Virus record (IMG/VR): IMGVR_UViG_3300009703_001822
Strand: one strand, 5' to 3'
From: a virus
Length of the DNA: 64,000 nt
Below the pieces are notes generated by a model. That model made no database searches. It was not told the origin of the DNA and saw only the letters and a program-made list of their open reading frames with translations. Position 1 is the first letter of the stretch. Every line of letters starts with the position of its first letter. The position numbers and the translations under genes were made by a program. Below, piece by piece: positions 175-61,870 of the stretch.

Positions 175-1722
175 GTGAAATTTAATATGAAACGGAAGTA
201 TGTCGTAATACTAGGCATACTTTTTTTATCTTTGATGGCCACGGAAGCAGTAGGAGAAGAGATAGAAGAAATAATAGTAGTAGGAGCTAATGAAACATTT
301 GCTTCATCACAACCAGAGTATGATAATTCAGTACTAGAAGCGGTAAATGTTTTTAGTGTATATCAGGCTGGGGGACGAGGAGGTTTTGCAGCAGTTTCTA
401 GCAATGGAACAGATGTAAAACATACAGCAGTTTATAGAAACGGAATACCAGTAAACGATCCAGGAGGTGGTTGGTTTGATTTTGGAACTGAGCTGCCTAC
501 CTTCCAAGACTTTACTATCATATCAGGATCTAATAGTGTATTGTTCGGCAGTTCAGCAATGGCAGGAACAGTACTTATGGAGGACACATTCTCCCCACAC
601 TTTTTTACTAAAGTAGGCAGTAATAGGTATTTAATATCTGGTGGTAATGAATATGTACAATTATCATCTTACAAAGGTTCCGATGGCTCTGCACGAACAG
701 ACAACAATGAGAAAGATTGGTTTGAAAATACAACACTAAAAACTAATTACCAGGCAGGTGATTGGAAATTTGTATCTGTATATCAGGATTATACTTATGA
801 TTATGACAACTGTTGGTTTGGAGTTGACGGTAATGATTGTGTACAAGAGGGTGAGAAAGTTGATATGTCAATTAGAAATAGTTGGCTCACAGTAGGCTAT
901 GGACAAAATGATATTGAACATAATACAGGTTGGGAAGCTAAAAGCAAAAGATATTTTGTAGATGCTAATGAAGAAATTTTACCTGGATTAATTGTAGGTG
1001 CACAAGCACACAGACAAGAGTATAATGAATATTGGTATCAGCATTATGCTACCTATGTAAATTATTCTACAGAAAACCATAGCATTGGTTGGAGAGTAGA
1101 AAACGACGATCATGTAATTAGATATGGTTATGAGAAAGATCAATTTAGATTTTCAGTAGGTAACAGTATTAGAATGCCTAATCTATATGAAAGGTATGGT
1201 GATGATTGGGTTGCAGCTAATCCAGATATAAAAGCAGAAAAGGGTAAAGGTATTACAATAGGATATGGTTTCTTTTCAGCATTTTATTATGACTTCTCAG
1301 AAAGTATAGATTTTGATATGAACACTTATGGTTATGTCAACTCAGGAGGATATGAATCCAAAGGAATTAGTTTTCAAAGGCATTATCTATATGATGTAGG
1401 TGCTTTTCATATATCAACTTCATATACTGATACAGATCAAATTAGAGCTGCCAAATACCAAACAAAAGTATCTTGGTTCAGTACAATACAAGGCTGGGAC
1501 TATCTGATATCATATGTAGGACAATACGACAGAGGTAATGACTTTGACGGAACACCTATTGATGATGTATCAACCTTTGATTTTAATATAGGATACTATC
1601 CAAAGCCAGGATTGCGTTTTGCAGTCGAGATTAGGGACATTTTGAACAGGAAATTCGAGATTTTACCCTATTATGGCGCTGGTGGAAGGGAAATAAATCT
1701 CACCTTACACCTAAGTTATTGA
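175..1722 (+). CDS. TonB-dependent outer-membrane receptor, BtuB-like
   Basis: Signal peptide, TonB-box-like EEIIVVG, plug motifs HTAVYRNGIPVND and SVLFGSSAMAGTV, aromatic beta-strands, C-terminal GREINLTLHLSY ending in an aromatic residue. Confidence 0.8.
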   Translation: MKFNMKRKYVVILGILFLSLMATEAVGEEIEEIIVVGANETFASSQPEYDNSVLEAVNVFSVYQAGGRGGFAAVSSNGTDVKHTAVYRNGIPVNDPGGGWFDFGTELPTFQDFTIISGSNSVLFGSSAMAGTVLMEDTFSPHFFTKVGSNRYLISGGNEYVQLSSYKGSDGSARTDNNEKDWFENTTLKTNYQAGDWKFVSVYQDYTYDYDNCWFGVDGNDCVQEGEKVDMSIRNSWLTVGYGQNDIEHNTGWEAKSKRYFVDANEEILPGLIVGAQAHRQEYNEYWYQHYATYVNYSTENHSIGWRVENDDHVIRYGYEKDQFRFSVGNSIRMPNLYERYGDDWVAANPDIKAEKGKGITIGYGFFSAFYYDFSESIDFDMNTYGYVNSGGYESKGISFQRHYLYDVGAFHISTSYTDTDQIRAAKYQTKVSWFSTIQGWDYLISYVGQYDRGNDFDGTPIDDVSTFDFNIGYYPKPGLRFAVEIRDILNRKFEILPYYGAGGREINLTLHLSY

Positions 1723-1743
1723 AATAAATAATAAAAAGATTTA

Positions 1744-1820
1744 AAAAAATGCTTGACTCTTGGTTCGCCAGAGTGCATAATGTATGTATATTAAATAAAA
1801 AGTGAGGACTTTATAATATG
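1744..1820 (+). repeat. Promoter+RBS cassette, near-identical to 4356-4433
   Basis: AAAAAATGCTTGACTCTTGGTTCGCCAGAGTGCATAAT...GTATATTAAATAA...AAAGTGAGGACTT(T)ATAATATG occurs at both sites. Confidence 0.9.
1753..1781 (+). promoter_or_regulatory. sigma70-type early promoter
   Basis: TTGACT-17 bp-CATAAT preceded by an A-tract. Confidence 0.85.
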
Positions 1821-4337
1821 CCAAACCAAATAGAAGTAAAATCAGTATTAGCGAAACTACTAGCGACAGAGGATATTGACATTGTTCATGATGCCAAAGC
1901 TCCAACTGCAGCATTTGATGTAAAGAATCGTAAACTGTATTTACCTGTTTGGAAAAACATGTCTAACTCCATGTACGATTTATTCATCGGACATGAAGTA
2001 GGACATGCACATGAAACTCCTGAAGAAGGATGGCATGATGCGGTTATTGATAACCCTTCACTAAAAGCATTCTACAATATTATAGAAGACGCTAGGATTG
2101 AAAGAAAAGTAAAAGAAAGATATCCTGGTCTTGTTAAGTCATTCCACAGAGGTTACCAAGAATTATTCGACAAAGACTTTTTTGGTGTTAAGAATAGAGA
2201 CTTAACTACACTTCCATTCGTTGACAGAGTAAACTTACACTTCAAGATTGGACACTTACTAGGTCTTAAATTTACAGAAACAGAACAAACTTTCCTAGAC
2301 AGAGTTTCTAAAACAGAAACATGGAACGATGTTAAAGAACTAGCACATGAGTTAGCAGACATTTCCAAGAAAGAAGCTGAGGAAAGAGCAGACGAATTAG
2401 AGCCACTCCAACAGATGTTAGATGACTTGATGTCAGATATGGATCAAGCAGAATCCGAGACACCTGATTGGAATAACTACATGCCAGATCATATGAAAGA
2501 AGATGAGGAGTCAGAAGATGACGGAGAAGGCGAAGGTGAAGGCGAAGGTGAAGGTGAAGCTCAAGAAGATGACACCAAAGATGAATACGGAAATCCAAAA
2601 CCAGGAACACCAGGTGGTGGTCAAGGTGAGGATGAAACAGATGAAGACTACACCGAGCGTAAGCAAAAAGAATGGGACGCAGAACAGAAAAAATGGGAAG
2701 AAGATCGTAAGCGTAGACAAGCAGAATACGACGCAGAACAAAAAGCTCGTGAACTGTTTGAAGAAGATGTAGCTAAGAACGAAGAAAAGAAATTAGAATT
2801 ATCAGAAGCTATTGAAGAAGTTGAAAAGATGCATGGCTTCCTAGACGGCGAAGGCCAAAAGTCAATTACAGATGACGCTTTCAGAGATAACGAAAAGTCA
2901 CTTGTTGATACAGACGCTCAAGAAATTGTTTACCTTAAGCAACAGAAGTTGCACAAGGCAAGCGAGTGGATTGTTCCAATGAACGAACTATATAATTGGG
3001 ACGAGTGCATAGAGATACAAGGACATACAGATGATGGTTACTTCGATTACGATAAGCCAATGCCTAAGGACTTGATGATAGCAGAAGGTAAGAAAATGTA
3101 TAAAACATTCTTATCCAACACTCAACCAATCATTAACTCAATGGCACAGACTTTCGAGATGAAGAAGGCAGCACAGGCTAACAAGAAAGCACAGATTGCC
3201 AAGACAGGTAAGTTGAATGAGGACAGACTTTGGGCTTACCAATTGACTGAAGACTTATTCCAAAAGAACATGATTGTTCCTAACGGTAAGAACCATGGTA
3301 TCATAATGTATGTTGATTTATCAGGTAGCATGAACAGACAGATGCCTGGTACACTAGAACAGATGATGAATATGGCATTGTTCTGCAGAAAGGTTAACAT
3401 TCCATTTGATGTATATGGTTTCTCAAATTGCAGATATGGTGAGAGACATCCTACTCCTTGGAGTGAGAACAAAGACATGAACAGAAGTATCTTAGAGGGT
3501 CTTGAAGACGGCGAAATGGTAATTACAGATTCTAACTTTGCTCTTGTCCACATGCTAAGCTCTACTTGTAAGAAGTCAGACTTTGATAACGCAATGGCAT
3601 ACTTATTACTAATGAAGTTAGGTTATGAGAACAGAGGTTACTGGAGTGAAGGATTGTATGGTTACATACAGAACGATTACTTTAGACTAGGTGGTACTCC
3701 ACTTAACTCAGCTCTTATTCTAGCTCCACAGATTGCCAAAGAGTTCCAGAAGACTTACAATGTAGAGAAGTTGACTACGGTATTCCTAACAGACGGTGGC
3801 GCTACAGACTCTATTACATACAGAGACTCAACCAGAGAACACAGAGCAGTAGCTAGTGTATATGGTGAGCCAATAGCTATTAAGCACCAAGGCAGCACTA
3901 CACAGCTCCCTAATAAGAAAGGATACAGCCGTAGAGATGGTGTTACTACATTGACCCTTGTAGAGTTCTACAAGAACATCACAGGCAGTACTCTTATTAA
4001 CTTCCACATAGTAGACGGCAAGCGTGATAACTTCTACAGCGAGTATGTATCCACAGACTGGATGGAAGGCAAAGAGCCAGCTCACTATGTAACAAATGAA
4101 TTCATGGACGGTACTTGGAAAGAAGTACTTAAGAACAAATTTACAGTCGTAGAACCAGCATTTGGATACGACGCTAGGTTCCTACTCAAAGGACAAAAGG
4201 ATCTAGAGATAAAGAACGAAGAATTGGAAGTAAAATCCAACAAAAAAGGCGATTTATTGAGAGGATTCAAGAAGTTTTCTAAAGGAAAAAGCACTTCTAG
4301 AACTTTCCTTAATCAAATCATAGAGTTAGTAGCATAA
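1818..4337 (+). CDS. CobT-like metallopeptidase/VWA-domain protein
   Basis: HEVGH zincin motif, NIIEDARIE, acidic linker with GE repeats, VWA MIDAS DLSGS and FLTDG; adjacent to a CobS-like ATPase as in T4-like phages. Confidence 0.85.
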   Translation: MPNQIEVKSVLAKLLATEDIDIVHDAKAPTAAFDVKNRKLYLPVWKNMSNSMYDLFIGHEVGHAHETPEEGWHDAVIDNPSLKAFYNIIEDARIERKVKERYPGLVKSFHRGYQELFDKDFFGVKNRDLTTLPFVDRVNLHFKIGHLLGLKFTETEQTFLDRVSKTETWNDVKELAHELADISKKEAEERADELEPLQQMLDDLMSDMDQAESETPDWNNYMPDHMKEDEESEDDGEGEGEGEGEGEAQEDDTKDEYGNPKPGTPGGGQGEDETDEDYTERKQKEWDAEQKKWEEDRKRRQAEYDAEQKARELFEEDVAKNEEKKLELSEAIEEVEKMHGFLDGEGQKSITDDAFRDNEKSLVDTDAQEIVYLKQQKLHKASEWIVPMNELYNWDECIEIQGHTDDGYFDYDKPMPKDLMIAEGKKMYKTFLSNTQPIINSMAQTFEMKKAAQANKKAQIAKTGKLNEDRLWAYQLTEDLFQKNMIVPNGKNHGIIMYVDLSGSMNRQMPGTLEQMMNMALFCRKVNIPFDVYGFSNCRYGERHPTPWSENKDMNRSILEGLEDGEMVITDSNFALVHMLSSTCKKSDFDNAMAYLLLMKLGYENRGYWSEGLYGYIQNDYFRLGGTPLNSALILAPQIAKEFQKTYNVEKLTTVFLTDGGATDSITYRDSTREHRAVASVYGEPIAIKHQGSTTQLPNKKGYSRRDGVTTLTLVEFYKNITGSTLINFHIVDGKRDNFYSEYVSTDWMEGKEPAHYVTNEFMDGTWKEVLKNKFTVVEPAFGYDARFLLKGQKDLEIKNEELEVKSNKKGDLLRGFKKFSKGKSTSRTFLNQIIELVA

Positions 4338-4364
4338 AAATGTTGAAATCTTTTGAAAAAATGC

Positions 4365-4393
4365 TTGACTCTTGGTTCGCCAGAGTGCATAAT
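4365..4393 (+). promoter_or_regulatory. sigma70-type early promoter
   Basis: TTGACT-17 bp-CATAAT, identical to 1753-1781. Confidence 0.85.
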
Positions 4394-4430
4394 AACGGTA
4401 TATTAAATAATAAAAGTGAGGACTTATAAT

Positions 4431-5615
4431 ATGAAAGCAATTGATAGAGAAAACTTAATCCAGGCGTTACAGTCACAGGACAACGGCACTGGAGTTTTTA
4501 CCCGTAAACAAATCATTGAAACTGCCAAGTCAATTGGCTTAGGTTTCCCAGCTTGGTTGGTTAACGGAAAACCAGAAGTCAAAGTAGACAGAGGTGTCTA
4601 TAACCTGACTTCAATGTTTGGAGGCCAAGTGGCTAACGCACAACCAATTGAACCAGCAACACAGCAGGTTCCATTGGCGGTTGTTGAAACACAACCTAGA
4701 GAATTGGTACAGGCACAACTAAGAGTTGATGTCGAGAATCTAGTTCCTGAGAAGGACGCTACATTCGTTCCATTTGGCTTTTACAAAGACTTGAAAAAAG
4801 TTTTAAGCTCAAGTATGTTTTACCCAATATTCATTTCAGGCTTATCAGGTAATGGTAAGACCACAATGGTAGAACAGGTTTGTGCTAATCTTAAGCGTGA
4901 AGCTATAAGAGTAAATATTAGTATTGAAACTGATGAGGATGATTTAATCGGTGGCAATACATTAGTTGACGGTAATGTCGTCTACAGAGAAGGGCCCGTC
5001 CTCACCGCGATGAAGCGGGGCGCTGTTCTCATACTTGATGAAGTGGATAGGGGTTCGAACAAGTTGATGTGCTTACAAGCCATCCTTGAGGGGAAGCCTT
5101 ACTTCAACAAGAAGACTGGCGAAACCGTAACTCCTGCTCCTGGATTTAACTTAGTAGCAACAGCTAACACTAAGGGTCGAGGATCAGATGATGGCAAATT
5201 TATTTCAGCCAACATACTCGACGAGGCATTCCTAGAAAGGTTTGCAATCACAGTTGAGCAGGAGTACCCTACATTAGCTACCGAGAAAAAGATAGTGATC
5301 AAGAAGATGGAAAAGGTCAATAACATTGACGAAGACTTCGCGACACACCTTGTTACTTGGAGTGATGTTATTCGTAAAACTTATTACGAGGGTGCAATCG
5401 ACGAACTTATTTCAACAAGAAGGTTGGAGCATATTGTAAATGCGTTTGCCGTGTTTGGTGACAAGCAAAAGGCAGTTCAACTTTGTGTTAATAGGTTCGA
5501 CGAAGACACAAAAGAGGCATTCATAGACTTGTATGCCAAAGTTGATCCTAGTGTAGAACTAGCAGAGTCAACTGAAGAAACTGAACAGGAGATACACGAA
5601 GATGGCGAAAGCTAA
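4431..5615 (+). CDS. cobS: CobS-like MoxR-family AAA+ ATPase
   Basis: Walker A GLSGNGKT, Walker B LILDEVD, ATANTKGRG, LDEAFLERF; ATG 4431 follows the GTGAGG RBS. Confidence 0.9.
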   Translation: MKAIDRENLIQALQSQDNGTGVFTRKQIIETAKSIGLGFPAWLVNGKPEVKVDRGVYNLTSMFGGQVANAQPIEPATQQVPLAVVETQPRELVQAQLRVDVENLVPEKDATFVPFGFYKDLKKVLSSSMFYPIFISGLSGNGKTTMVEQVCANLKREAIRVNISIETDEDDLIGGNTLVDGNVVYREGPVLTAMKRGAVLILDEVDRGSNKLMCLQAILEGKPYFNKKTGETVTPAPGFNLVATANTKGRGSDDGKFISANILDEAFLERFAITVEQEYPTLATEKKIVIKKMEKVNNIDEDFATHLVTWSDVIRKTYYEGAIDELISTRRLEHIVNAFAVFGDKQKAVQLCVNRFDEDTKEAFIDLYAKVDPSVELAESTEETEQEIHEDGES

Positions 5616-5910
5616 AAGTCCTCAGTATAAGTTCAACGAAGGAGCTCTCATAGAAGAGCTCCGTCGTTATATCGACGCCACTTATACAGGACATTATAGT
5701 CGAAACAATTTCCAATCCACAGAATTCATTAGTGATTGTGGCCACGGTATAGGATTTGCAATAGGCAATATTCTAAAGTATGCACAACGATATGGTAGGA
5801 AGGGCAATCCTGAGGACCATAGAAAGGACCTACAAAAGGTTTTGCATTATGCCATTATTGCACTTAATGAACACGACAAGAGTACTACAAAGCACTATCT
5901 AGAAGACTAA
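5602..5910 (+). CDS. DUF3310-like protein (T7 gp1.7-like family)
   Basis: HY...GFAIGNILKYAQRYGRKG...DLQKVLHY signature. Confidence 0.7.
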   Translation: MAKAKSPQYKFNEGALIEELRRYIDATYTGHYSRNNFQSTEFISDCGHGIGFAIGNILKYAQRYGRKGNPEDHRKDLQKVLHYAIIALNEHDKSTTKHYLED

Positions 5911-5921
5911 TAAATACTGGT

Positions 5922-7478
5922 ATGAGAGGAATCATACTAGGATGTCTACAAGCAAATCCAGGCTGGCAAGGACCACTAGGTCTAATGAACCCAGACTGGA
6001 TTAACCTTAAAAGATCAGGAGGCGCACACAAGATTGCAACCTACATGCGTAGCGAAGGATGGGATATTGAAGTCCTGGATTATTGGCTGGCGTTTACTGA
6101 TGAAGAGTTCAAAGAATTTTGCCGTTCAAGAATAACAAATGATACAAAGTTCATAGGTGTTAGTGTAACCTTTGGATATAAAGGAAACATTCTTAAAAGA
6201 GCACAAGATAATCTTACATGGTTAAAACAAACCTATCCAGATATCATGATCGTTGCAGGATCAAAAGCACTGGTTGATACTATGGCCTTACCATGTGATT
6301 ATTACATAACAGGTTATGGAGAGTTTGGTTTAATAAAACTCTTACAGGGAGAGGCAAAAGTAATAGAGTGTATGGGTAAACAGGTTGTATTATCAGACAC
6401 ATATCACCCTTGTTTCCCTAGTAAGGACCTTGTAGTAAACTATGAGGACAGAGACTTTATACAACCCTCAGACAACCTCACATTAGAACTCTCCCGTGGG
6501 TGTAAGTTTAAATGTAAGTTCTGTTCATACAATGCAATAGGTATGAGAGGAGACTTAACTAGGGACATGAGTACATTACATGGAGAGATGTTAGAAAATT
6601 ATGAGAGATGGGGTGTAACGAGTTATCATGTAGCAGACGAAACAACAAATGATAATCAGGAAAAAATAAAACTAGCAGGACAGGAGATACAAAGATTACC
6701 TTTCATGCCTAATCTTACAGGTTTTGTTAGAGCAGATTTAATTGCAAGAAGGCCAGAGGATAAAGTTTATTTAGCTGAGATGGGATTCTGGGCTCACTAC
6801 TATGGCATAGAAACTTTTAATCAAGATGCAGGAAGAGTAGTAGGTAAAGGTATAAATCCTGAAGAACTAAAAGCAGGATTATTAGAAGTAAAAGATTATT
6901 TTAAAAAGCATTGCGGTAGATACAGATCAACGGCAAGTTTAATATTAGGATTGCCATATGAAACAACAGAGAGCCTCTATGATGGTTTAACCTGGTACAG
7001 AAGTAATATGCCTGAGGAGAACTTAATACTTCAACCATTGTTTATTAATAAACATGTTGATCCTAACTTAGGAACATCATCAGAGTTTGCAAGGACATGG
7101 AGAGAAGGTAAACACTTTCATTCCGAAGCTCCCAGAGAAGAATTTACACAAGAAGAATTAGATTTATTTGACGGCAACCCTTTAACATTACAATATTTAA
7201 AAAGATTACATGACGGTCCTCATTGGGTAAACTGGAGTCATGATACATTTACTTGGAAGTCAGCAATATTAGAGTTAGGCAAATTTATATTAAAAGATGG
7301 GTATAACTATAACAATAATAGAATAATGACATGGGATTTATTTAACTTTGTGACGCCTGGAACATATAATTGGGACAATGTTTTGGACCTTACGATTGTT
7401 AATTATGATTGGAAAAAACTAGCATCTGATACAGATGAATACCTCCAAAATTACAAAAATTCCAAATTGGGCTTATAA
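5922..7478 (+). CDS. Cobalamin-binding-type radical SAM enzyme (paralog 1)
   Basis: ELSRGCKFKCKFC CxxxCxxC motif, N-terminal B12-binding-like Rossmann (IGVSVTF...IVAG), VADET, GIETF, ILGLPYET. Confidence 0.85.
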   Translation: MRGIILGCLQANPGWQGPLGLMNPDWINLKRSGGAHKIATYMRSEGWDIEVLDYWLAFTDEEFKEFCRSRITNDTKFIGVSVTFGYKGNILKRAQDNLTWLKQTYPDIMIVAGSKALVDTMALPCDYYITGYGEFGLIKLLQGEAKVIECMGKQVVLSDTYHPCFPSKDLVVNYEDRDFIQPSDNLTLELSRGCKFKCKFCSYNAIGMRGDLTRDMSTLHGEMLENYERWGVTSYHVADETTNDNQEKIKLAGQEIQRLPFMPNLTGFVRADLIARRPEDKVYLAEMGFWAHYYGIETFNQDAGRVVGKGINPEELKAGLLEVKDYFKKHCGRYRSTASLILGLPYETTESLYDGLTWYRSNMPEENLILQPLFINKHVDPNLGTSSEFARTWREGKHFHSEAPREEFTQEELDLFDGNPLTLQYLKRLHDGPHWVNWSHDTFTWKSAILELGKFILKDGYNYNNNRIMTWDLFNFVTPGTYNWDNVLDLTIVNYDWKKLASDTDEYLQNYKNSKLGL

Positions 7479-7513: not shown

Positions 7514-7840
7514 ATGGCATATACAGTAACATGGACACTTACTAGACCTGACGAGTCAACAACTATCCCTACGATAGATAGTGTTTCTGGTACCAACAAA
7601 GCAGCTAGTGATAATATACTAGCTAGTCATGGTGTGTCTAAGACTTATCAAGTCGACGGGTTAACAACTAGAGTAATTTATGAGGCAGCAGATAAGGCAA
7701 CTTACGATACCGCTAAAGCAGAAGTAGATGCTATTTCTGATGAAGCTACAGTTAAATCACAACTAAAGACTCAAATGGAAGCAGCAGGTATAGCTCTTTC
7801 GGTTGTGGATTCTGATGGTACTAACATAGCAAGTTTCTAA
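7514..7840 (+). CDS. Hypothetical late protein
   Basis: GGAG RBS, 108 aa Ala/Thr/Ser-rich, downstream of late promoters. Confidence 0.7.
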   Translation: MAYTVTWTLTRPDESTTIPTIDSVSGTNKAASDNILASHGVSKTYQVDGLTTRVIYEAADKATYDTAKAEVDAISDEATVKSQLKTQMEAAGIALSVVDSDGTNIASF

Positions 7841-7857
7841 AACAACAGGTTTATATT

Positions 7858-8616
7858 ATGAATTTTGGTGAGAGAATAACTTACGAACTAGACAATCATG
7901 TCGCCGTTTTAACGATAAATGGCGTCGGTCCACTCAACTTAATAGACAGACCTTTTTATCAAGGTTACAACGACGCCCTAGTAGAATTCAGAGAAGATGA
8001 TTCTAGAGTTCTACTTATCAAGTCAGGAAATAAACATCACTTTACAGCAGGTTTTGAAGTAGACACAATTATTGATGCTTTGAAAACAGGATACGGCAAT
8101 ACAATTACAGACAATGATATGGTTACATCTAAACCTATTGTATCAGCAGTCAAAGGTTTTTGTATTGGAGAAGGTGTAGGTGTAATGTTAGCAAGTGATT
8201 TTGTATTCGCAGATAAAACATTAAAAATATCTTGTCCTGAAACTAAATTAGGTTTCAATGCAGTTACAATGCAGGTTAAATTCGCTCAAAGAATTGGACA
8301 CAATAGAACAATGGAATTTATGATGGGAGACTTACATGGTGCTGATTGGTTAGATAAAGTAGGATTATGTACAAAGATATGTGATGGAGATGCTGACGAA
8401 CAAGCATTAGCATATGCACATAAGATTGCTAATAACAATGCACCAATTGCAGTTAGAGGAACAAAAGGTGCCATATGGCATACAGTAAACTCTCATAAGG
8501 ACGAAGCAATAGACTTTGCCTTGTGGGCAAAGGACATGACACTAGACTCTAAGGATATAGAGGAAGGCGTTGCAGCATTTTTAGAAAAAAGATCGCCTGA
8601 TTTTAAAGATGAATGA
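7858..8616 (+). CDS. Enoyl-CoA hydratase/isomerase (crotonase) family protein
   Basis: VAVLTIN, FTAGF, KPIVSAVKGFCIGEG, PETKLG, DIEEGVAAFLEKRSPDF. Confidence 0.9.
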   Translation: MNFGERITYELDNHVAVLTINGVGPLNLIDRPFYQGYNDALVEFREDDSRVLLIKSGNKHHFTAGFEVDTIIDALKTGYGNTITDNDMVTSKPIVSAVKGFCIGEGVGVMLASDFVFADKTLKISCPETKLGFNAVTMQVKFAQRIGHNRTMEFMMGDLHGADWLDKVGLCTKICDGDADEQALAYAHKIANNNAPIAVRGTKGAIWHTVNSHKDEAIDFALWAKDMTLDSKDIEEGVAAFLEKRSPDFKDE

Positions 8617-9556
8617 ACAAGATAAAAGTATAAACAGATTAAAATATCAAAAAGGTGTTGTTTCTTATGAAGGTAAATCAGGCGTGCCTTACAAATGGAT
8701 GATGCATGAGAACAAAGGCTGGTTTGAAAACGCAAAAAGAATACAAGGTGATGATTGGTATTGGGGATCTGATAAATCGCCTGAAATAACCTATGTATTA
8801 GATGATTTAGGTTTTAGAAATGATAGGAACATAGAAGAAGTAAGTAAAAATCCTAATTGGTGGTTAATAGATGGAGCATGTCCTTGTTTAGGGCCTGGAA
8901 TAGATAAAGCTCGTACTACACCTGCATTGATAGAACAATATACAGACATAAAGGTTTACGATATAAGTTTATTTGGTGTAAGGCCTGAATTTCAAATAGG
9001 TAATTTATTAGAATTATCTAAAAGATGGATTAATCCTCCTAAAAGAGTATTATTACTTCTTCCTGAAAATCCTACAGGCACTTTCCAATTGACAGACGAC
9101 GACAAAATAATGAATATAGATTATGCAGGTGCAACATTAAGAAATACACCTGAATTTAATTTTTTTAAAGACTTCGAGGAACAGAAAATATCAGAAGGAC
9201 AACATAGGTATTTTATAAAAACCACCATAAAATTATGTGAAGTTTTGAACTTACCTTTAACATGGCTTTTTGTAGGTAAAGTAGCAGATCATTCTCCTGT
9301 ACATTATATGGAGAATCAGGATATTTTATATCATGAACATGCTTCTATTATGCACTCAAATAGCAAAGATACTTATGAAGATAGAATAATGAAGATTAAA
9401 AAAGGTGCTGTTCCTCCTATGAGAAATGGTGTGAAAGCATCTGGTGTGGATATAGACGATGTGGGTAGAGATTTATTTCACCCAGGATTAAAACCACACA
9501 AACTTTTTGCTCAAAAAATATGCAATCATTTTTTAGAGACGAAAAGAAACTTTTAA
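8609..9556 (+). CDS. Hypothetical protein, SGNH-hydrolase-like
   Basis: LGFRND...DGACPCLGPG...RDLFHPG (DxxHP) pattern; usual catalytic Ser not obvious. Confidence 0.45.
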   Translation: MNEQDKSINRLKYQKGVVSYEGKSGVPYKWMMHENKGWFENAKRIQGDDWYWGSDKSPEITYVLDDLGFRNDRNIEEVSKNPNWWLIDGACPCLGPGIDKARTTPALIEQYTDIKVYDISLFGVRPEFQIGNLLELSKRWINPPKRVLLLLPENPTGTFQLTDDDKIMNIDYAGATLRNTPEFNFFKDFEEQKISEGQHRYFIKTTIKLCEVLNLPLTWLFVGKVADHSPVHYMENQDILYHEHASIMHSNSKDTYEDRIMKIKKGAVPPMRNGVKASGVDIDDVGRDLFHPGLKPHKLFAQKICNHFLETKRNF

Positions 9557-13001: not shown

Positions 13002-13421
13002 ATGAGTGATCAAGAGAATTACTTTAACATAGACTATCCAGGGTATTCACCCCTAGAAGTTTCCTTAAATGACTCAGAAGATTTTTTGAAAGTCAGGGAA
13101 ACTTTATCTCGGATTGGAGTAGCTTCTAAAAAGGACAAGGTCCTTTATCAGTCATGCCATATTCTACACAAGAAAGGTAGGTACTTTATAACACACTTTA
13201 AAGAACTATTTGCTCTTGATGGCAAGGAAGCAGACTTTCAAGATAACGATTTACAAAGACGAAATACTATTGCTAAACTTTTACAAGATTGGGGTTTAGT
13301 AAGTATTATGACAGAGGTAGAAGATTACGCACCTCTAAGTCAGATTAAGATTATATCGTTTAAAGAGAAAGGTGAGTGGGAGCTAATCCCCAAATACAAC
13401 ATTGGAAAGAAAGTTAAATAA
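13002..13421 (+). CDS. regA: Translational repressor RegA
   Basis: FLKVRETLSRIG...LYQSCHILHKKGRYFITHFKELFALDG. Confidence 0.96.
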   Translation: MSDQENYFNIDYPGYSPLEVSLNDSEDFLKVRETLSRIGVASKKDKVLYQSCHILHKKGRYFITHFKELFALDGKEADFQDNDLQRRNTIAKLLQDWGLVSIMTEVEDYAPLSQIKIISFKEKGEWELIPKYNIGKKVK

Positions 13422-14685
13422 AAACCAGATACAAGCCCTTCAAATCATAAAGGACGAACAGGACAATGTAGGGCCTGGTTTCTGCGTGCTAAAATGGTAT
13501 CATTTAGAAATGCACTTAGGAACAGGCGAAAGTCATTCTTGTTATCATTGCCCCACACAAAAAATTCCACTAGGAGCTGACTTACACAATACACCTCAAA
13601 AAATAGAAAAAAGAGCTGAGATGTTGCAAGGCAACAAACCTTCAGAGTGCTCTTATTGTTGGGAGGTAGAGGATCTTGATTTAATCTCAGATAGACAAAC
13701 TCTTGCAGTACAATTTTTTAAACATAATCGAGATATAGTAAAAGAGGCAACTGATGCTGGCTTAGGTTATGTTTATCCTAAATATTTAGAATTATCTTTC
13801 ACCAATAAATGTCAAATGGCATGCAGTTATTGTGGACCTACATTTAGCACAGCATGGGGAAAAGAAATAGATGAGCATGGACCTTATAATTTATCTAAAC
13901 CTTATAATTTACCTCAAACACCACAACTAGAAAACTCTCCCTATGTATCTAAGTTTTGGAAATGGTTTCCACAAGCATACGAACATTTATTTACTCTTAG
14001 AGTAACAGGAGGTGAACCTTTATTAGATAAGAATACATATAAACTTCTAGAATATGTTAAAGAGCATCCTAGAAAAGGATTAACATTTCATTGTAATTCT
14101 AATCTTATGGTTTCAGCAAATAGAGTACAAAAATATATTGACCTAGTAAAAGATGTGCCTAATACAAAACTTTATGCCAGTGTTGACTCATGGGGAAAAG
14201 AAGCAGAGTATATTAGACATGGTTTAGACATAGATCATTTTGAGGAAAATTTAATTAGATTATTAGCACAAGGAATACATGTAGGTATTATGTGTACATT
14301 TAATTTTTTATCTATTCCTAATCTTAGTGGTTTTATATTTAAGATGGCAGAACTTAAAATACAATTTGGAGATTTAATAACAATTGATATGCCTTATATG
14401 GTTTCTCCAGCACACCTTTCAGCACAAATTTCTGATGATACTCATATAAGTATAATGGAAGAAGGATTAAAAGAAATGCAACTTTATCCTTTTTCTTTAG
14501 GCGAAATAGAAAAATTTAAAAAGACTGTAGGTTGGATAAAGGCAAATAGATTTCAAGATTTAGAACTACTAAAACACAGAAGAGATTTTTGGCATTTTGT
14601 ATATGAACATGATAAAAGAAGAGGCACAAATATTAAAGATGCCTTTCCTGATTTAGGATTTGATAATGATAAACTTCGAGGGTAA
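13402..14685 (+). CDS. Radical SAM protein with N-terminal twitch/SPASM-like Cys cluster
   Basis: CQMACSYC, TGGEPLL; N-terminal FCVLKW...SCYHC...CSYCW. Confidence 0.85.
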   Translation: MERKLNKNQIQALQIIKDEQDNVGPGFCVLKWYHLEMHLGTGESHSCYHCPTQKIPLGADLHNTPQKIEKRAEMLQGNKPSECSYCWEVEDLDLISDRQTLAVQFFKHNRDIVKEATDAGLGYVYPKYLELSFTNKCQMACSYCGPTFSTAWGKEIDEHGPYNLSKPYNLPQTPQLENSPYVSKFWKWFPQAYEHLFTLRVTGGEPLLDKNTYKLLEYVKEHPRKGLTFHCNSNLMVSANRVQKYIDLVKDVPNTKLYASVDSWGKEAEYIRHGLDIDHFEENLIRLLAQGIHVGIMCTFNFLSIPNLSGFIFKMAELKIQFGDLITIDMPYMVSPAHLSAQISDDTHISIMEEGLKEMQLYPFSLGEIEKFKKTVGWIKANRFQDLELLKHRRDFWHFVYEHDKRRGTNIKDAFPDLGFDNDKLRG

Positions 14686-16755: not shown

Positions 16756-19257
16756 ATGAACTTTTATACTTATGCTAGACATTACGGGGACAAAATATTG
16801 TTCCGAGGTGTCGACTCAGATGGTAGTAGAGTAACTGCCAGACGAGATTTTAGACCTACATTATTTGTTAAGTCTGACAAACCCTCTAAATACAGATCTA
16901 TATATGGCGAACAAGTGTCGCCTATTAGCTTCGACAATAATAAGGAGGCAACTGCCTTCTTTGACAGATACAAAGATGTGGAAAACTATCCTATCTTTGG
17001 ACAAAACTATTACGCATACCAATACATCACCGAGAAATATCCTGGTGTTGTAGCATGGGATGCTAAGCACATAGCCATTTACTCTATTGATATTGAAACA
17101 ACGAGTGAAGGTGGCTTCCCGAATGTGGACTCTCCTAGCGAGAAGGTGTTAGTTATAACTCTACAAAACAACAACACCAAGAAGATAACAACCTTTGGTC
17201 TGGGAGAGTTCACTCCAACTGAAACTACAAGTCATTTAGATATAGATTATATCAAGTGTGAAACTGAGGCAGAATTATTAGAATCTTTCCTCTCATGGTG
17301 GGAGGATAATTGTCCTGATATTATTACAGGTTGGAATAGTAATTTGTTTGACATGCCTTATCTTATTACAAGAACAGTTAGGGTACTAGGTGAGAACGAA
17401 CACAAAAGATTCTCTCCTTTTAAGTTAATTAACAAACGCCCTATTAGGTTTGCAGCAGGTAGGGAGATGACAGCATTTGAAATTACAGGTGTTGCACAAT
17501 TAGATTATTTAGACTTATATAAGAAGTTTACTTATGTGACTCGAGAGTCTTATAAACTAGACTTTATTGCAGAGACAGAACTAGGTAAAAGAAAACTAGA
17601 GTCAGGCTTTGACACATTTAAAGAGTTCTATGAGAAAGATTGGAATAGGTTTGTAGAATATAATATTATAGATACAGTTCTTGTTGATGAGTTAGAAGAT
17701 AAAATGAAACTTATTGAACTTGCTATTACAATGGCATATGATGCCAAGTGTAATTATAATGATGTATTCTCAGCAGTTAGAACCTGGGATAGTTTACTCT
17801 ACAATCATTTGTGGGAGAAGGACATTGTTATACACCAAGGTGGTGGTAGAAAAGATAGACAAATAGAAGGTGCTTTTGTACAAGAACCTGTCCCTGGAGG
17901 TTATGATTGGGTGGCAAGTTTCGATGCTACAAGTCTATATCCTTCTATCCTTATGCAACATAACATGAGTCCTGAAACTATTGTTCCTGGATTTAAATAT
18001 GATGTAACAGTAGACGATCAACTAGATAGATATCAGTTAGATAAACTTAAGGAAAAGAACTATACTATGGCAGGCAATGGTTCCTGTTATACAAGGGACA
18101 AGCGAGGTTTGTTTCCTGAGATTGTACAAAAGTTCTTTGATGACAGATTAAGATACAAGAAACTAATGCAGAAGGCACAAGCAGACTTTCAAGAAACAGG
18201 TGCCTTACATCACAAGAATGAGATATCTAAATACAACAATTTCCAGATGGCTAGAAAGATTCAACTAAACAGCTTATATGGTGCCCTTGCTAATCAGTAT
18301 TTTAGATTCTATGATGATAGAATAGCAGAAGGCATTACAATGTCAGGACAATTAATTATTCGAGATACTGCTAAGGCTCTCGATGCCTATATGAACAAAG
18401 TATGTGGCACAGATGACAAAGTATATTCTTTTTATAGTGATACTGACTCTTGCTATGTAACTTGTAAGAACATGGTAGATAACTTCTTCCCTGACAAGGA
18501 TACTTCTAAAATTACAGAACTCCTAGATAAGATAGGAACAGATAAGATAGAGCCTGCTATAGATCAGGCAATGATTAAACTTGCTAATTACACTAATGCC
18601 TTTGAAAAGAAAATATTCTTCAAGCGTGAGGTTATCGCAGACAAAGGTGTGTTTGTGGCAAAGAAAAGATATGCCTTGAATGTATTAGATGATGAAGGAC
18701 TAAGACTAAAAGATCCTAAACTAAAGGTTATGGGTTTAGAAATTGTAAGGTCCTCGACACCAGGTCCTGTTCGAGATAGTTTGAAAGAGGCAGTTCGTCT
18801 TGTACTTACTTCTGAGGAAGAGGAGTTACATGATTATATCGAGAAAACAAAAGCAGAGTTCAACGCCCTGGCAGCTGAGGATATTGCCTTTCCTAGAGGT
18901 TGTAATAATTTGCGGAAGTACTATTCTTCCTCAGATATTTACACAAAAGGCACACCTATACATGTCCGAGGCAGTTTACTCTACAACAATCTAATTAAGA
19001 AAAATAATTTGTTTGTTAAGTATGAACAGATACAAGAAGGTGATAAGATTAAATTCTTATACTTGAAGGAACCTAACAATATAGGCGAGAATACTATTGC
19101 CTTTGTTACAAAACTACCTTCAGAGTTTGATGTTCATAAGTATGTAGACTATGATTTAATATTTGAAAAAGCATTTGTGGAACCTTTAAAGAACATTCTC
19201 AATCCTATAGGCTGGAATACAGAACCACAAGCAACATTGGAGGACTTGTTTAGATGA
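16756..19257 (+). CDS. gp43: Family B DNA polymerase (T4 gp43)
   Basis: DIET exonuclease, SFDATSLYPS, KIQLNSLYG, YSDTDS, KKRYAL, C-terminal clamp-binding TLEDLF. Confidence 0.98.
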   Translation: MNFYTYARHYGDKILFRGVDSDGSRVTARRDFRPTLFVKSDKPSKYRSIYGEQVSPISFDNNKEATAFFDRYKDVENYPIFGQNYYAYQYITEKYPGVVAWDAKHIAIYSIDIETTSEGGFPNVDSPSEKVLVITLQNNNTKKITTFGLGEFTPTETTSHLDIDYIKCETEAELLESFLSWWEDNCPDIITGWNSNLFDMPYLITRTVRVLGENEHKRFSPFKLINKRPIRFAAGREMTAFEITGVAQLDYLDLYKKFTYVTRESYKLDFIAETELGKRKLESGFDTFKEFYEKDWNRFVEYNIIDTVLVDELEDKMKLIELAITMAYDAKCNYNDVFSAVRTWDSLLYNHLWEKDIVIHQGGGRKDRQIEGAFVQEPVPGGYDWVASFDATSLYPSILMQHNMSPETIVPGFKYDVTVDDQLDRYQLDKLKEKNYTMAGNGSCYTRDKRGLFPEIVQKFFDDRLRYKKLMQKAQADFQETGALHHKNEISKYNNFQMARKIQLNSLYGALANQYFRFYDDRIAEGITMSGQLIIRDTAKALDAYMNKVCGTDDKVYSFYSDTDSCYVTCKNMVDNFFPDKDTSKITELLDKIGTDKIEPAIDQAMIKLANYTNAFEKKIFFKREVIADKGVFVAKKRYALNVLDDEGLRLKDPKLKVMGLEIVRSSTPGPVRDSLKEAVRLVLTSEEEELHDYIEKTKAEFNALAAEDIAFPRGCNNLRKYYSSSDIYTKGTPIHVRGSLLYNNLIKKNNLFVKYEQIQEGDKIKFLYLKEPNNIGENTIAFVTKLPSEFDVHKYVDYDLIFEKAFVEPLKNILNPIGWNTEPQATLEDLFR

Positions 19258-19832
19258 TTAAAAGTTTTTGGCCTAATGAGTGGCCGTTTGAACAAATTGT
19301 AAGTCAGTTACCTGATAAAGGTAATCTAATTGAAATAGGAACTTATTTAGGTAAATCTGCTATAGCATGGGCTGATGAGTTTAACAAAGCAGATAAAGAT
19401 TGGAATATTCATACTATTGATTCCTTTAGTGGTATTCCTAATGTTTGGAGTGAAGACAATCCTAACATAGAATTTTTCAAGAGCTTAGTAATAAGTGGAG
19501 AGGAACAATTAAAACAGTTTAAGGAAAATATAGAAGGTAAAGATAACATTACATGGGAAAAAATATTTTGGACACCAGATTACAAAACAGATGAATGGTA
19601 TGATGTTTTATTTTATGATGGCGCTCACGGATATGGAAACTGTAAACAAGCATTAGAATATTGGGTAGACAGAACAGAATGTATGGTTATAGATGATTAC
19701 GATACAAAGCATCCAGGTACAATGGAGGCAGTAGATGAAGTATATGCTTCTATGAGAGATCCTAAAGAGTTTGAACAAATTTGTGTTGAAGGAAAACAAA
19801 TAGCAGTAATTTGGAGTATAAAAATACCATGA
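19254..19832 (+). CDS. Class I SAM-dependent methyltransferase (Methyltransf_24-like), paralog A
   Basis: LIEIGTYLGKS, IHTIDSF, FYDGAH, IDDY. Confidence 0.85.
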   Translation: MIKSFWPNEWPFEQIVSQLPDKGNLIEIGTYLGKSAIAWADEFNKADKDWNIHTIDSFSGIPNVWSEDNPNIEFFKSLVISGEEQLKQFKENIEGKDNITWEKIFWTPDYKTDEWYDVLFYDGAHGYGNCKQALEYWVDRTECMVIDDYDTKHPGTMEAVDEVYASMRDPKEFEQICVEGKQIAVIWSIKIP

Positions 19833-36491: not shown

Positions 36492-36511
36492 TAACTTACA
36501 TAAATACAAAT

Positions 36512-45215: not shown

Positions 45216-45775
45216 GCAAGGATATACAAAGTTTTTATCCGTTTGACTGGCCTTTTGAAGAGATAGTAGCAGAACTTCCTGATAAAGGAAACTTAATAGA
45301 AGTAGGTCCTTACCTAGGTAAGTCTACGGTTACATGGGCTGAATGTTTTGAACGAGCAGGTAAAGAGTGGAATATACATACAATTGATCTGTTCATAGGT
45401 ATTAGTAAAATAGGAAGACCTGACAATGCTTCTGAAGAACTAACAAAACATTTAGACTCTTTATTAATTAGTGAAGAGCTACATGAACAAACATTTAAAG
45501 AAAATATACAAGGATGGAATAATATAAGTTATGAAAAAGGATTTTTTAACAAGGATTATCAACTACATGGAAAAGAGTATAATGTATTATGGTATGATGG
45601 ATTACATGACTACGATCATGTTATTGAGGCTCTCAGATTCTGGGAAGACAAAGTCCAACACATGATTGTAGATTGTTACGATGATATACACCCAGGGACA
45701 AAGAAAGCAGTAAGCAATTACATACCTAAGAAAATACTTAGACCTGCAGAAGGCAAAGGTATAGCATGGTTATAA
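45203..45775 (+). CDS. Class I SAM methyltransferase, paralog B
   Basis: LIEVGPYLGKS, IHTIDLF, YDGLH; close to 19254-19832. Confidence 0.85.
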   Translation: MRRLSKDIQSFYPFDWPFEEIVAELPDKGNLIEVGPYLGKSTVTWAECFERAGKEWNIHTIDLFIGISKIGRPDNASEELTKHLDSLLISEELHEQTFKENIQGWNNISYEKGFFNKDYQLHGKEYNVLWYDGLHDYDHVIEALRFWEDKVQHMIVDCYDDIHPGTKKAVSNYIPKKILRPAEGKGIAWL

Positions 45776-46431
45776 ATCCAGAAGGTGTTCCTAAAGATGG
45801 AACGATAGGTGTTGTAGTATCAGGAGGTTTTGATAGTTCTATTCTTTGGCATATAGTTTATGGTATATGTTTAGAAAGAGGACAAAAGTGTGTTCCTTTT
45901 ACTGTACCTAAAAATGATGGAGCATTAAGTTATGCCAATAGAATGCTTGATTGGAGTTGGCAACATTATGGTGGTAAAAGAAAACATCCTGTTGTAATCA
46001 ATGCTAATGGTGTTGACTGGAGTAGGAAAGACTATCAAGGTAACGAGGTAGCAGAACAGTTATTGGGAGGCCTAAGAGATATAACAGATAATAATATGGC
46101 AGATTATATATTTACAGGCGTTAATGAATATCCTCCTAATCATGAAACATTATGTTCTTATCATGTGCCCGGTCCTAGGAAATTGGCAAGGGAGACTGAT
46201 ACAGAATACAAAGGTAGGAAGATAAAGAGTTTTATATTTCAACCTTTTGCAGACTTTACTAAGGCAGATTTAGTTTCGTTTGCATTTGATTTAGGTATAT
46301 TACATGATATATCAGAGTTCTCACATAGTTGCGTCGAGAATATTAGAGGCAGATGTGGAGAATGTTTTTGGTGTAAAGAAAGAGAATGGGGCTTTGAACA
46401 AGCTGGCCATGTAGACATAGGTTCTAACTAA
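45766..46431 (+). CDS. QueC-like PP-loop ATPase
   Basis: VSGGFDS PP-loop, PF..TK, SHSC...RCGECFWCKER Zn site. Confidence 0.75.
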   Translation: MVINPEGVPKDGTIGVVVSGGFDSSILWHIVYGICLERGQKCVPFTVPKNDGALSYANRMLDWSWQHYGGKRKHPVVINANGVDWSRKDYQGNEVAEQLLGGLRDITDNNMADYIFTGVNEYPPNHETLCSYHVPGPRKLARETDTEYKGRKIKSFIFQPFADFTKADLVSFAFDLGILHDISEFSHSCVENIRGRCGECFWCKEREWGFEQAGHVDIGSN

Positions 46432-47072
46432 TGAGAAAGAGTAGTCAAGATATCAATGGCCTACCTCAACCTGTAGCAATGTATAATGATGTACAGAATT
46501 GGCCTGATGAAGGACTATTATTAGAAATAGGAACATTACATGGTAAATCTGCTGTATCATTTGCTGAGGCATTTGAAAAATATAATAAGACTTGGAATAT
46601 ACATACAATAGATTTTTATAAGGGTAGCAAATGGACAGCTAATGTTGGCATGACGGAGGAAGAATATATATCATGGCGTAAGGAAAATGGCATACACACA
46701 TCAGGAGAGGAACAGCGAAGAATTGTATTAGAAAATTTAGAAGGTTGGGATAATATTAAAGCAGAAAATGCTAACTTCTTTCCAGGCTATGTTATAAATA
46801 TCCAGCCCACAGCACTTTTTTATGACGGCAATCACGATTATGAACCTTGCAAGTGGGCTCTAGATAAATTCAAAGATCTAGATCTCCTTTATGTTGATGA
46901 CTATTGTAATAGACAATTTCCTGGAACAGTCCAGGCCTGTCATGAACACGCAGAAGAACAAAATAAAGATATGAAAGTATATCTAAGGGGAGGCGATATA
47001 GTAAAAGATCCTAATGCCTCAGAAACATATTTACAAGGTGGCGTTGCAGTCATCACAACTAAAGAGGAATAA
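46431..47072 (+). CDS. Class I SAM methyltransferase, paralog C
   Basis: LLEIGTLHGKS, IHTIDF, FYDGNHDY, VDDY, FPGT. Confidence 0.85.
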   Translation: MRKSSQDINGLPQPVAMYNDVQNWPDEGLLLEIGTLHGKSAVSFAEAFEKYNKTWNIHTIDFYKGSKWTANVGMTEEEYISWRKENGIHTSGEEQRRIVLENLEGWDNIKAENANFFPGYVINIQPTALFYDGNHDYEPCKWALDKFKDLDLLYVDDYCNRQFPGTVQACHEHAEEQNKDMKVYLRGGDIVKDPNASETYLQGGVAVITTKEE

Positions 47073-56435: not shown

Positions 56436-56447
56436 TATTTATAAATA
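56436..56447. promoter_or_regulatory. Bidirectional overlapping late promoters
   Basis: Palindrome TATTTATAAATA gives TATAAATA on both strands between divergent genes. Confidence 0.7.
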
Positions 56448-59412: not shown

Positions 59413-59666
59413 TGGAAGAGTTTGGTTGGCAAATATTATTCCTTGGTGTCCTGATAGGAGGCATGTACTCCTCATACAAAATAGGACATAAAGAAGGTTC
59501 AGGTGCCATGATAGATTTTTGTAAGTCAAAGCGCAATAAGCAAGGGTTGACGCTTATTCATTTCTTCGGACAAAATATAGAATTCTTAGATCCTCTATCC
59601 TATAATAAGGCTATGCTAGATTCAATAGCAAAAGCTCTAGAGGAAGAGGATGAACACAGCTCCTGA
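59412..59666 (+). CDS. Membrane-anchored hypothetical protein
   Basis: N-terminal TM, SYKIG..EG. Confidence 0.7.
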   Translation: MEEFGWQILFLGVLIGGMYSSYKIGHKEGSGAMIDFCKSKRNKQGLTLIHFFGQNIEFLDPLSYNKAMLDSIAKALEEEDEHSS

Positions 59667-60207
59667 AAGATATAACGAAGTAGAAGTATTATCCACATAC
59701 CTCGAGACTAAGAACATAACAATATACAGTCATGGTCCTATAGGTACACGACCCTTTGAGCCATTCATGAAAGCATTAGGCACACGCACAATGCTAGCCT
59801 ATGTCAAGCCACACCATTGGATGAACATTACAAAAGAATATACAAATCACACGCACATATTAATATTACGAGATCCTGTAGAACAACACAACCACGCCAC
59901 ATTCCTACATGCCATGTCATTGAGAGATGTGGTACTGAAAAGAGACAACATGTTCTACTCTACACATTTACGACCACATCTAGGAACAATAGCACAAGCA
60001 GAGTTTGATTTCTATATTAACTATCAAGACTTGAATAAATACTTATTAGAATGGCAAAACCCTTATCCGCCTGTAGCAGAGACAGGCAAGTTTTTTAATC
60101 TCGATGAAGAGGTTGCAGCGTTTGAATTTATCAAACGAAACAAGATGATATTAGAAGTGCCACAATGGAGGGAATTGTTGTTACACGGACAATTGAATGA
60201 AATATAA
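59650..60207 (+). CDS. Hypothetical protein, weakly sulfotransferase-like
   Basis: HGPIGTR and LILRDP resemble PAPS-binding motifs. Confidence 0.4.
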   Translation: MNTAPERYNEVEVLSTYLETKNITIYSHGPIGTRPFEPFMKALGTRTMLAYVKPHHWMNITKEYTNHTHILILRDPVEQHNHATFLHAMSLRDVVLKRDNMFYSTHLRPHLGTIAQAEFDFYINYQDLNKYLLEWQNPYPPVAETGKFFNLDEEVAAFEFIKRNKMILEVPQWRELLLHGQLNEI

Positions 60208-61870
60208 AGGAATAATACTCGGCGGAGCGATAGAAAGAGCAGACACATCGGAAACCAGGAATCAAGCTCCTGGTTTGTCTACTCCAGAGCCACCTGAAAC
60301 CTGGCATAGTATTAAAAGATCTGCAGGTGCACACAGAATAGCCACACATTTACGAGAAGAAGGCTGGGACATAGAAGTGGTAGACTTCTGGCCTGCTTGG
60401 ACTCGTGATGAATTATTAGATCTAATGGAAAAGAGAGTAGACGAAAATACTAAGTTCATAGGCATTTCATCTATGTTTCCTTTACAAGGACCTAGCGGTG
60501 GCACTATGGTGCAAACTATGAACGAAACAGTTCAAGAAATTAAGAAAAGACACCCACATTTAATCATTATAGGAGGTTCTCAGAATGTAGGAGCATCTTT
60601 ACAATGGTGGTGTGATTATTATATTGCTGGCTTTGCAGAAGTAGGAATAATAGAACTATTAAAATATATTACAGGCGATGGCCCTGAACCTTCAGGAATG
60701 GTAACTAAGGAAGTCTGGGGTATGGAGAGAAAATGGATAAACTGTAGACATCATTATCCTGCTTTCCCATGGCCTGATGCTAAGGTTAAATATGAAGACA
60801 GAGACTTTATGAGATCTGATGAAGTGCCAACGGTAGAATTCAGTCGTGGGTGCAAGTTTAAATGTAGATTCTGTTCCTTCTCTGTACTAGGAGTTAAAGG
60901 AGATTATAGTAGAGATGAAGATAGTCTTTACGAAGAACTATTAGATAATTATGAGAGATGGGGCATAACAACCTATTCAGTATCTGATGAAACTATCAAC
61001 GACTCAGAAGAGAAACTAGCAAAACTAGCACGAATAGCAAAACGATTACCTTTCCAACCATCATTCCAAGGATTTATGAGAGCAGATTTATTAGCATCCA
61101 AACCTGATACTTGGCAGGATGTATGGGACTCAGGTGTTAGATCACATCTTTATGGTGTGGAAACTCTCAATCATGAGGCAGGCAAATTTGTAGGCAAAGG
61201 CATGAATCCTGATAGATTAAAAGAAGGCCTTTTACGAGTTCAAGACTATTTCGGCAATAAAGGATTCTTCCGCTGTACAATATCAACGATTATAGGTTTA
61301 CCAGGAGAAACAGAAGAGACATTCCTAGCAGGTAGAGACTGGATATTGAATAACTTCAAAGGTCATGCTTTCTCGTTTTTCCCTCTCTTTATAGGACAAA
61401 ATGAGACATTTACAATGATGACAAACCCTAGTGTTCTAGAGCGAGAGTGGGCAGACAAGACTACAAAAGTATTATGGGAAACTAATGCAGAAGAGATGGG
61501 TGTTGATTATGAAGAACTACATCCTAGAATGAGACAGACAGCTAAATTTTATATGGAAGCTCCTGGTGTGGCAAAGTGGGCTAATAAAGACATGAATGTG
61601 TGGCAAGCATTTAAAATATTTAACAGAGTAGCAAGCGAGGCATTACTACCTACACAATTAGCTCCTGGTATATTCTTTTACCATAGATATCTCACAGGCA
61701 CAGATCATACAGTTCAGGACATGCAACAGACATTTTTAAGCGAGAATAAGCTACAATTAAATCGCCAATTGACGATGGATGATTACAATATAGATCCTTC
61801 ATTGACAACAATATATCCTAAACAGTACGAGATTATAGAAGAGTACAAGAGAAAAAAACTTGCAGTATGA
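60197..61870 (+). CDS. Cobalamin-binding-type radical SAM enzyme (paralog 3)
   Basis: EFSRGCKFKCRFC, IIIGG, VSDET, GVETL, IIGLPGET. Confidence 0.85.
   Translation: MKYKGIILGGAIERADTSETRNQAPGLSTPEPPETWHSIKRSAGAHRIATHLREEGWDIEVVDFWPAWTRDELLDLMEKRVDENTKFIGISSMFPLQGPSGGTMVQTMNETVQEIKKRHPHLIIIGGSQNVGASLQWWCDYYIAGFAEVGIIELLKYITGDGPEPSGMVTKEVWGMERKWINCRHHYPAFPWPDAKVKYEDRDFMRSDEVPTVEFSRGCKFKCRFCSFSVLGVKGDYSRDEDSLYEELLDNYERWGITTYSVSDETINDSEEKLAKLARIAKRLPFQPSFQGFMRADLLASKPDTWQDVWDSGVRSHLYGVETLNHEAGKFVGKGMNPDRLKEGLLRVQDYFGNKGFFRCTISTIIGLPGETEETFLAGRDWILNNFKGHAFSFFPLFIGQNETFTMMTNPSVLEREWADKTTKVLWETNAEEMGVDYEELHPRMRQTAKFYMEAPGVAKWANKDMNVWQAFKIFNRVASEALLPTQLAPGIFFYHRYLTGTDHTVQDMQQTFLSENKLQLNRQLTMDDYNIDPSLTTIYPKQYEIIEEYKRKKLAV

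Follow-up and report, generated by a model that had tools for sequence, protein, structure and literature searches.

Cobalamin-dependent (class B) radical S-adenosylmethionine (SAM) enzymes join carbon to carbon at positions of low reactivity; known examples come from the chemistry of antibiotics, lipids and archaeal proteins. In the class mechanism, SAM methylates the cobalt of cobalamin (vitamin B12), a 5'-deoxyadenosyl radical is generated and the methyl group is transferred. Seawater contains little B12, and many marine bacteria depend on its import. Tailoring-enzyme arrays, including cyanophage arrays that combine cobS with dioxygenase genes, are known in T4-like marine phages (PMC3037559, PMC2938197); we found neither B12 radical SAM enzymes nor BtuB described in phage arrays, and the literature searched, which excludes most subscription journals, returned no paper on a phage BtuB or on a cobalamin radical SAM enzyme from a phage. 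Here we analyse 64,000 nucleotides of the virus record IMGVR_UViG_3300009703_001822 (the window, meaning this whole stretch of DNA), which encodes three dispersed class B-type radical SAM paralogs and a compact BtuB-type receptor. A sequence-only reading had proposed that the phage supplies both cobalamin and iron-sulphur (Fe-S) clusters for its own radical methylation chemistry. A looser form of that proposal holds: an optional BtuB-type importer accompanied by an undescribed, mostly viral class B-type family.

The window derives from an uncultured marine phage of T4-like type, with T4-like replication genes for the clamp loader, RegA, DNA polymerase, UvsX, gp41 helicase, primase and class Ia NrdAB; its helicase is ~61% identical to those of phage Melnitz and cyanomyoviruses. 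A use of B12 in ribonucleotide reduction was ruled out because the window NrdAB is class Ia. Four relatives (G003, G006, G085 and G089) served as whole-genome stand-ins, among which G003 (170 kb, 99% complete) carries orthologs of all three window paralogs. When re-checked, every open reading frame (ORF) of the sequence-only reading was found where it had been placed.

The three paralogs, all on the plus strand, occupy separate sites: paralog 1 (site 1; 5922-7478, 518 aa) follows a cobS-like gene and a DUF3310 gene, paralog 2 lies at site 2 (36512-38083, 523 aa) and paralog 3 at site 3 (60197-61870, 557 aa). Pairwise identities are 32-40% (E 1e-95 to 1e-105), and the motifs reported as common to the three are all present, except that the C-terminus of paralog 1 reads YKNSKL instead of YK.KKL. 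Pfam Radical_SAM (PF04055) was above cut-off in all three, and the CxxxCxxC cysteines are invariant in 115 family sequences. The Pfam B12-binding domain (PF02310) passed in paralog 2 only, at 32.7 bits against a threshold of 32.1, the other two scoring 27.1 and 18.8 bits, under the cut-off. In a Foldseek search with the structure model of paralog 2 (pLDDT 90, pTM 0.91), the top 15 rows were all cobalamin-dependent enzymes (CysS, TsrM, OxsB, MgmA and TokK), so that the class B fold is borne out by model, structural matches and Pfam domain. The likeness to these five enzymes comprises an N-terminal Rossmann domain joined to a radical SAM barrel, the CxxxCxxC motif and Z scores of ~20 over 350-420 residues; the phage family differs in its low identity to them (12-17%), its dispersed paralogs, its late-type promoters and the lack of a biosynthetic cluster.

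The receptor gene (175-1722, plus strand) encodes a compact TonB-dependent protein of 515 aa with a signal peptide, TonB box, plug, short strands and a C-terminal Tyr, and its model retains 22 barrel strands despite the short chain. Pfam confirmed the TonB plug domain, and the TonB box is conserved. The sequence alone had no match in the PDB and a profile was needed: built from 45 receptor relatives, it matched E. coli BtuB at E 1e-25 to 3e-26, against 1e-3 or weaker for other receptors, with haem, colicin and copper receptors at 3e-3 or weaker. Likewise, the NCBIfam B12-receptor model TIGR01779 matched 40 of the 45 relatives, and the window protein alone matched no NCBIfam family. Foldseek placed BtuB at ranks 1-14 for the receptor model. 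Three acidic residues (E179, D181 and D211) are invariant in the 45 sequences; matching by eye, we take them to correspond to D193, D195 and D230 of the BtuB calcium cage (loops 2-3). By profile, fold and calcium-site residues the receptor is thus BtuB-like, as had been proposed, and by profile and fold it groups with BtuB rather than with siderophore receptors; very probably, it carries a cobamide. Compared with E. coli BtuB (PDB 1NQE-1NQH, 2GSK; TM 0.79), it shares the TonB box, plug, 22-strand barrel, acidic calcium-site equivalents and C-terminal signature, whereas it is shorter (~515 against 614 aa), with short strands and loops and an invariant Cys pair, and is not accompanied by a riboswitch. 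The receptor is widespread in phages (295 stretches), and a tblastn search against 50,697 phage records gave no match. In most loci of the clade it is preceded by a gene for a small exported protein (in the window, the end of this gene at 2-166; in locus L001, 3778-4245), a possible partner.

Distribution among relatives ties the receptor to the enzymes in one direction. At least one paralog, at differing sites, is present in each of the eight receptor-bearing relatives that could be followed far enough (G003, G006/8, G010, G011, G012/55, G089/92/97, G102 and a 166-kb ENA contig); in the ENA contig, which has neither site 1 nor NfuA, the predicted paralog was found at site 2. On the helicase tree these eight occupy about four positions, and both receptor and enzyme are missing from five relatives that were chosen by helicase and cover the slots. 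The enzyme lies directly after the receptor in three contigs, and two jumbo contigs pair the receptor with another B12 radical SAM, the copy in G094 being KedN5-like and beside an NDP-sugar dehydratase gene.

Timing is indicated by T4-type late-promoter boxes. The sequence ATAAATA stands 5 nt before the ATG of paralog 1 (5910-5916, plus strand) in 12 of 12 distinct orthologs and 5 nt before that of paralog 2 (36500-36506, plus strand) in all distinct orthologs seen. Because the window holds 28 ATAAATA sites, mere presence means little; the exact 5-nt spacing, shared by five window ORFs including paralogs 1 and 2 against 0.09 expected, carries the argument. In G003, nine ORFs have the box at this gap against 0.28 expected, one of them a baseplate wedge gene. 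The earlier remark that two paralogs follow late-promoter-like sites is thereby strengthened to a fixed position beyond chance and conserved in orthologs; paralog 3 has no late box of its own, nor do its site-3 orthologs. From these motifs, paralogs 1 and 2 are apparently switched on late in infection, and the 5-nt gap implies nearly leaderless late transcripts. Elsewhere in the window, late boxes overlap on both strands at 56436-56447, between divergent genes (one ending at 56372, the other starting at 56477), which includes the sole minus-strand late box.

Clues to the substrate are indirect. The window encodes sugar-tailoring functions (a glycosyltransferase, an NDP-sugar dehydrogenase, cytidylyltransferases and TylF-like methyltransferases), and arrays in relatives hold dioxygenases, carbamoyltransferase-like genes and twitch-domain radical SAMs. 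Taken with the apparent late timing, these favour virion glycans or proteins as the substrate, an assignment that falls just short of an even chance. A similar proposal has been made for bacterial dioxygenase-sulfotransferase operons with tail-collar proteins (PMC2938197). Three mutually paralogous proteins of a single cluster, distinct from the enzymes, are encoded at 19254-19832, 45194-45775 and 46431-47072, the first being a Methyltransf_24/TylF-like methyltransferase. Genes resembling folE, queD and queE stand upstream of the receptor in loci L333 and L418 and at 94-101 kb in G003, suggesting 7-deazaguanine DNA modification for the clade.

Taken together, these data would fit the following sequence. 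The phage would place its own compact BtuB in the host outer membrane, where the host TonB system would power additional cobamide uptake, and the class B enzymes would be made late in infection. Their N-terminal Rossmann domain would hold cobalamin base-off; as in the class mechanism, one SAM would methylate cobalt and a second would yield the 5'-deoxyadenosyl radical, allowing methyl transfer to an unactivated carbon. The likeliest targets would be glycans or proteins of the virion, the enzymes belonging to a larger phage tailoring kit, with the receptor serving as an optional supply aid and IscA, IscU and sometimes NfuA supporting all radical SAMs of the phage. We assign a probability of roughly 0.4 to the reading in which the B12 importer is an optional supplier of tailoring enzymes that are made late and act, most likely, on virion glycans or proteins. 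Its more specific form, in which several marine phage lineages use a shortened B12 importer to fuel cobalamin radical enzymes that C-methylate their own virion glycans or proteins during assembly, is offered more tentatively.

Several observations weigh against this reading. Among near-complete enzyme-bearing genomes, three have the receptor (paralog counts in brackets: G003 (3), G006 (2) and G089 (2)) and three have no TonB plug (G001 (3), G005 (1) and G085 (2); completeness 93-100%), and G085 is sister to the receptor-bearing G089. It follows that the enzymes can do without the receptor, and an obligatory system finds no support. No paralog was seen in 45 of 50 receptor contigs, all of them fragments of 4-49%, and the lineages are few and not fully independent. 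At the receptor itself, an Rfam scan of five loci detected tRNAs only and no cobalamin riboswitch; no late box precedes the gene, and no inner-membrane B12 carrier was seen in the window. The neighbours are ClpP, deformylase and cobT-like genes, with no btuFCD seen beside the receptor. No substrate gene travels with any paralog in the compared loci, and in a VIA-align comparison of the paralog 2 model the cobalamin-free AprD4 (Z 20.0) tied with TsrM, MgmA, CysS and OxsB (Z 19.7-20.4). Fisher tests of receptor against enzyme gave p ~0.01 and were not relied on, the genomes being related, partial and partly selected. What the sequence-only reading had expected of co-occurrence thus stands from receptor to enzyme and fails in the reverse direction. 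In this small sample, the nesting matches the expectation for an optional supply gene.

The strongest competitor, though unlikely, holds that receptor and enzymes are unlinked: the receptor would serve the host methionine synthase and SAM cycle, or would change the cell surface so as to hinder rival phages, with the enzymes drawing on the B12 pool already in the host. Absence of the receptor from half of the near-complete enzyme-bearing genomes agrees with this, as does the receptor's fixed slot, with paralog 1 missing from 13 receptor-chosen loci. In jumbo phages (L144, L157, L164 and L420) the neighbourhood of the receptor (15-18 of 46 loci) includes genes for the supply and salvage of SAM, namely MetK, an MtnN-like phosphorylase and a phosphoribosyltransferase; radical SAM enzymes would, however, likewise profit from such a set. 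Further, no receptor-bearing genome followed far enough was found without a B12-type enzyme, the site 2 paralog predicted for the ENA contig was recovered, and the intact TonB box favours active transport over a decoy. On balance, we favour the view that the receptor is kept for these enzymes.

It is improbable that the enzymes, though B12-dependent, act on DNA bases after replication, on the host lipid or envelope, or on a small metabolite instead of the virion surface. The 7-deazaguanine and carbamoyltransferase-like genes of relatives point towards DNA, a phage carbamoyltransferase being known to modify cytosine (PMC8670742), and some enzyme copies adjoin UvsW or gp32; the main text of PMC8670742, however, mentions neither radical SAM nor B12. 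Lipids are suggested by cellular kin in Bdellovibrionales, at 27-30% identity, which lie in islands with desaturase, acyl carrier protein, ketosynthase, sulfotransferase-like and hydroxylase genes. Against these options, the closest folds work on small molecules, sugars or peptides, the late box suits assembly better than nucleotide supply, and the crotonase gene beside paralog 1 is present or absent independently of it.

The remaining alternative makes the N-terminal domain a cobalamin-free look-alike, as in AprD4 or ArsL, a kind of member named in PMC12931638; the enzymes would then be dehydratases working by radical chemistry, or alkyl transferases, with sugars or small molecules as substrates. 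AprD4 and ArsL share the overall architecture, and AprD4 does not bind cobalamin (PMC12931638), so the fold is no proof of cobalamin binding; the sub-threshold B12-binding scores of two paralogs, the frequent replacement of the second Gly of the GG motif by Ser, and the appearance of GEGE as GYGE or GFGE point the same way. The family profile, in contrast, ranked TokK, 9ccb (MgmA) and CysS first in the PDB and left AprD4 unmatched, and the NCBIfam matches of the three paralogs, scoring far below every cut-off, are B12 families in which AprD4 does not figure, its standing in NCBIfam being weaker than theirs. At the position of TokK Trp215, which sits between cobalamin and cluster (PMC12931638), F, Y or W occurs in 247 of 259 family members, the three window paralogs having Tyr, Leu and Phe, all hydrophobic. 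A GEGE-like motif (GxGE or GxAE) is present in 205 of the 259, and a nearly invariant Phe73 follows strand 3, a possible candidate for the hydrophobic lower-axial position held by Trp76 in TokK. No N-terminal-domain Cys is conserved across the family alignment, and a methylthiotransferase of the MiaB/RimO type was excluded on the same ground, its second-cluster cysteines not being conserved. Judged from the alignments, profile order, the aromatic residue and the absence of a conserved N-terminal Cys tilt towards cobalamin, and with the structural model the domain is likely to bind it; the look-alike explanation, which also leaves the receptor pattern unaccounted for, is rated improbable.

The enzyme family is large and mostly phage-borne, with 102 viral loci and Atlas clusters that are 100% viral; a tblastn search with paralog 2 against the same 50,697 phage records found no match. 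In the family tree each window copy belongs to a different clade, and each clade is bound to its own site; the paralogs are therefore old and probably specialised, with probably different targets. Recent duplication was rejected on the same topology. A phage-type member occurs in a marine Pseudomonadales metagenome-assembled genome (L253, 3495-5018), after mutY and yggX-like genes, and its nesting among jumbo phage copies suggests phage-to-host transfer.

The Fe-S half of the proposal fared less well. NfuA (30937-31542, plus strand, 201 aa) is genuine: PF01521 and PF01106 were above cut-off, TIGR03341 gave E 4e-64, below its equivalog cut-off, and the protein has the two-domain organization of known NfuA with a CxxC-bearing NifU domain. 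It is of gammaproteobacterial type, ~50% identical to Cellvibrionales proteins, which suggests, on sequence grounds, a gammaproteobacterial host. As a fixed member of the system it failed, being found in none of four near-complete genomes and in 3 of 33 records, and being absent from G003 despite the orthologs of all three paralogs there; no close relatives were found among viral contigs. In G025 and G019 (L171, L172) its reading frame is split or broken by one in-frame TAA. IscA-type carriers are the common form in these phages, A-type carriers being present in four of five genomes and IscA and IscU adjoining the receptor in G006/8; they are not specific to B12 enzymes. Since these phages encode up to 15 radical SAMs per genome, the Fe-S carriers serve a general load. 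Of the two cofactor supplies envisaged, then, the optional BtuB-type importer stands and a dedicated NfuA does not. Most of the 15 radical SAMs of one jumbo phage lie in a 40-kb array (L357-L358; G001, 238-278 kb) that also contains many dioxygenase-like genes, a QueC-like gene and a carbamoyltransferase-like gene.

The fourth radical SAM of the window (13402-14685, plus strand, 427 aa) proved to be of twitch-domain type (NF033640 above cut-off, no B12 domain match) and is an Fe-S client, not a B12 client. The DUF1289 gene after paralog 3 (61867-62073, plus strand, 68 aa) exists as described; the role of partner does not carry over, as it is not tied to the enzymes in relatives. A 107-aa ferredoxin-like gene directly before paralog 1 in three contigs (L005, L015 and L016) is a candidate reductant. 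Directly after the receptor, a cobT-like vWA and cobS-like AAA pair spans 1818-5615; in comparison with the cyanophage cobS arrays, the cobS-like gene here lies between receptor and paralog 1. The pair was rejected as a member, and its 'cobalamin' name is misleading, because it also occurs in relatives without receptor and enzyme.

Downstream of paralog 1 (7514-9556) are a 108-aa gene behind a doubled late box, a crotonase gene and a 315-aa gene; the first is always present, and the other two were rejected as system members, varying independently of paralog 1. Site 2 is flanked upstream by two lysine-rich genes (33388-36491, plus strand; 17-18% Lys; the gene starting at 33388 has a late box) for putative internal head proteins, the N-terminus of the 33388 product presumably resembling a T4 capsid-targeting sequence, and downstream by a third gene of this kind (38122-39777, plus strand). 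Paralog 2 had been placed inside a head-protein block, a placement that did not survive: the supposed block consists of these lysine-rich genes beside spanins, far from gp20-23. No capsid gene was found in the window; in G003, ~20-25 kb separates the receptor from the portal, protease and major head genes upstream of it, and these genes are ~55-60 kb away from paralog 2. The same slot in relatives holds other family subclades or unrelated genes; site 2 may mark a slot for the insertion of late-expressed genes and give no hint of the substrate.

If the importer reading is true, a virus with its own importer would act as a vitamin sink, and the importer would be an auxiliary gene class of which the cultured phage records searched contain no example. 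The compact receptor would constitute a natural minimal TonB-dependent transporter. The large and diverged viral enzyme family would offer a ready source of new substrates for cobalamin radical chemistry, and a testable approach to the enzyme arrays, so far unexplained, that large marine phages carry.

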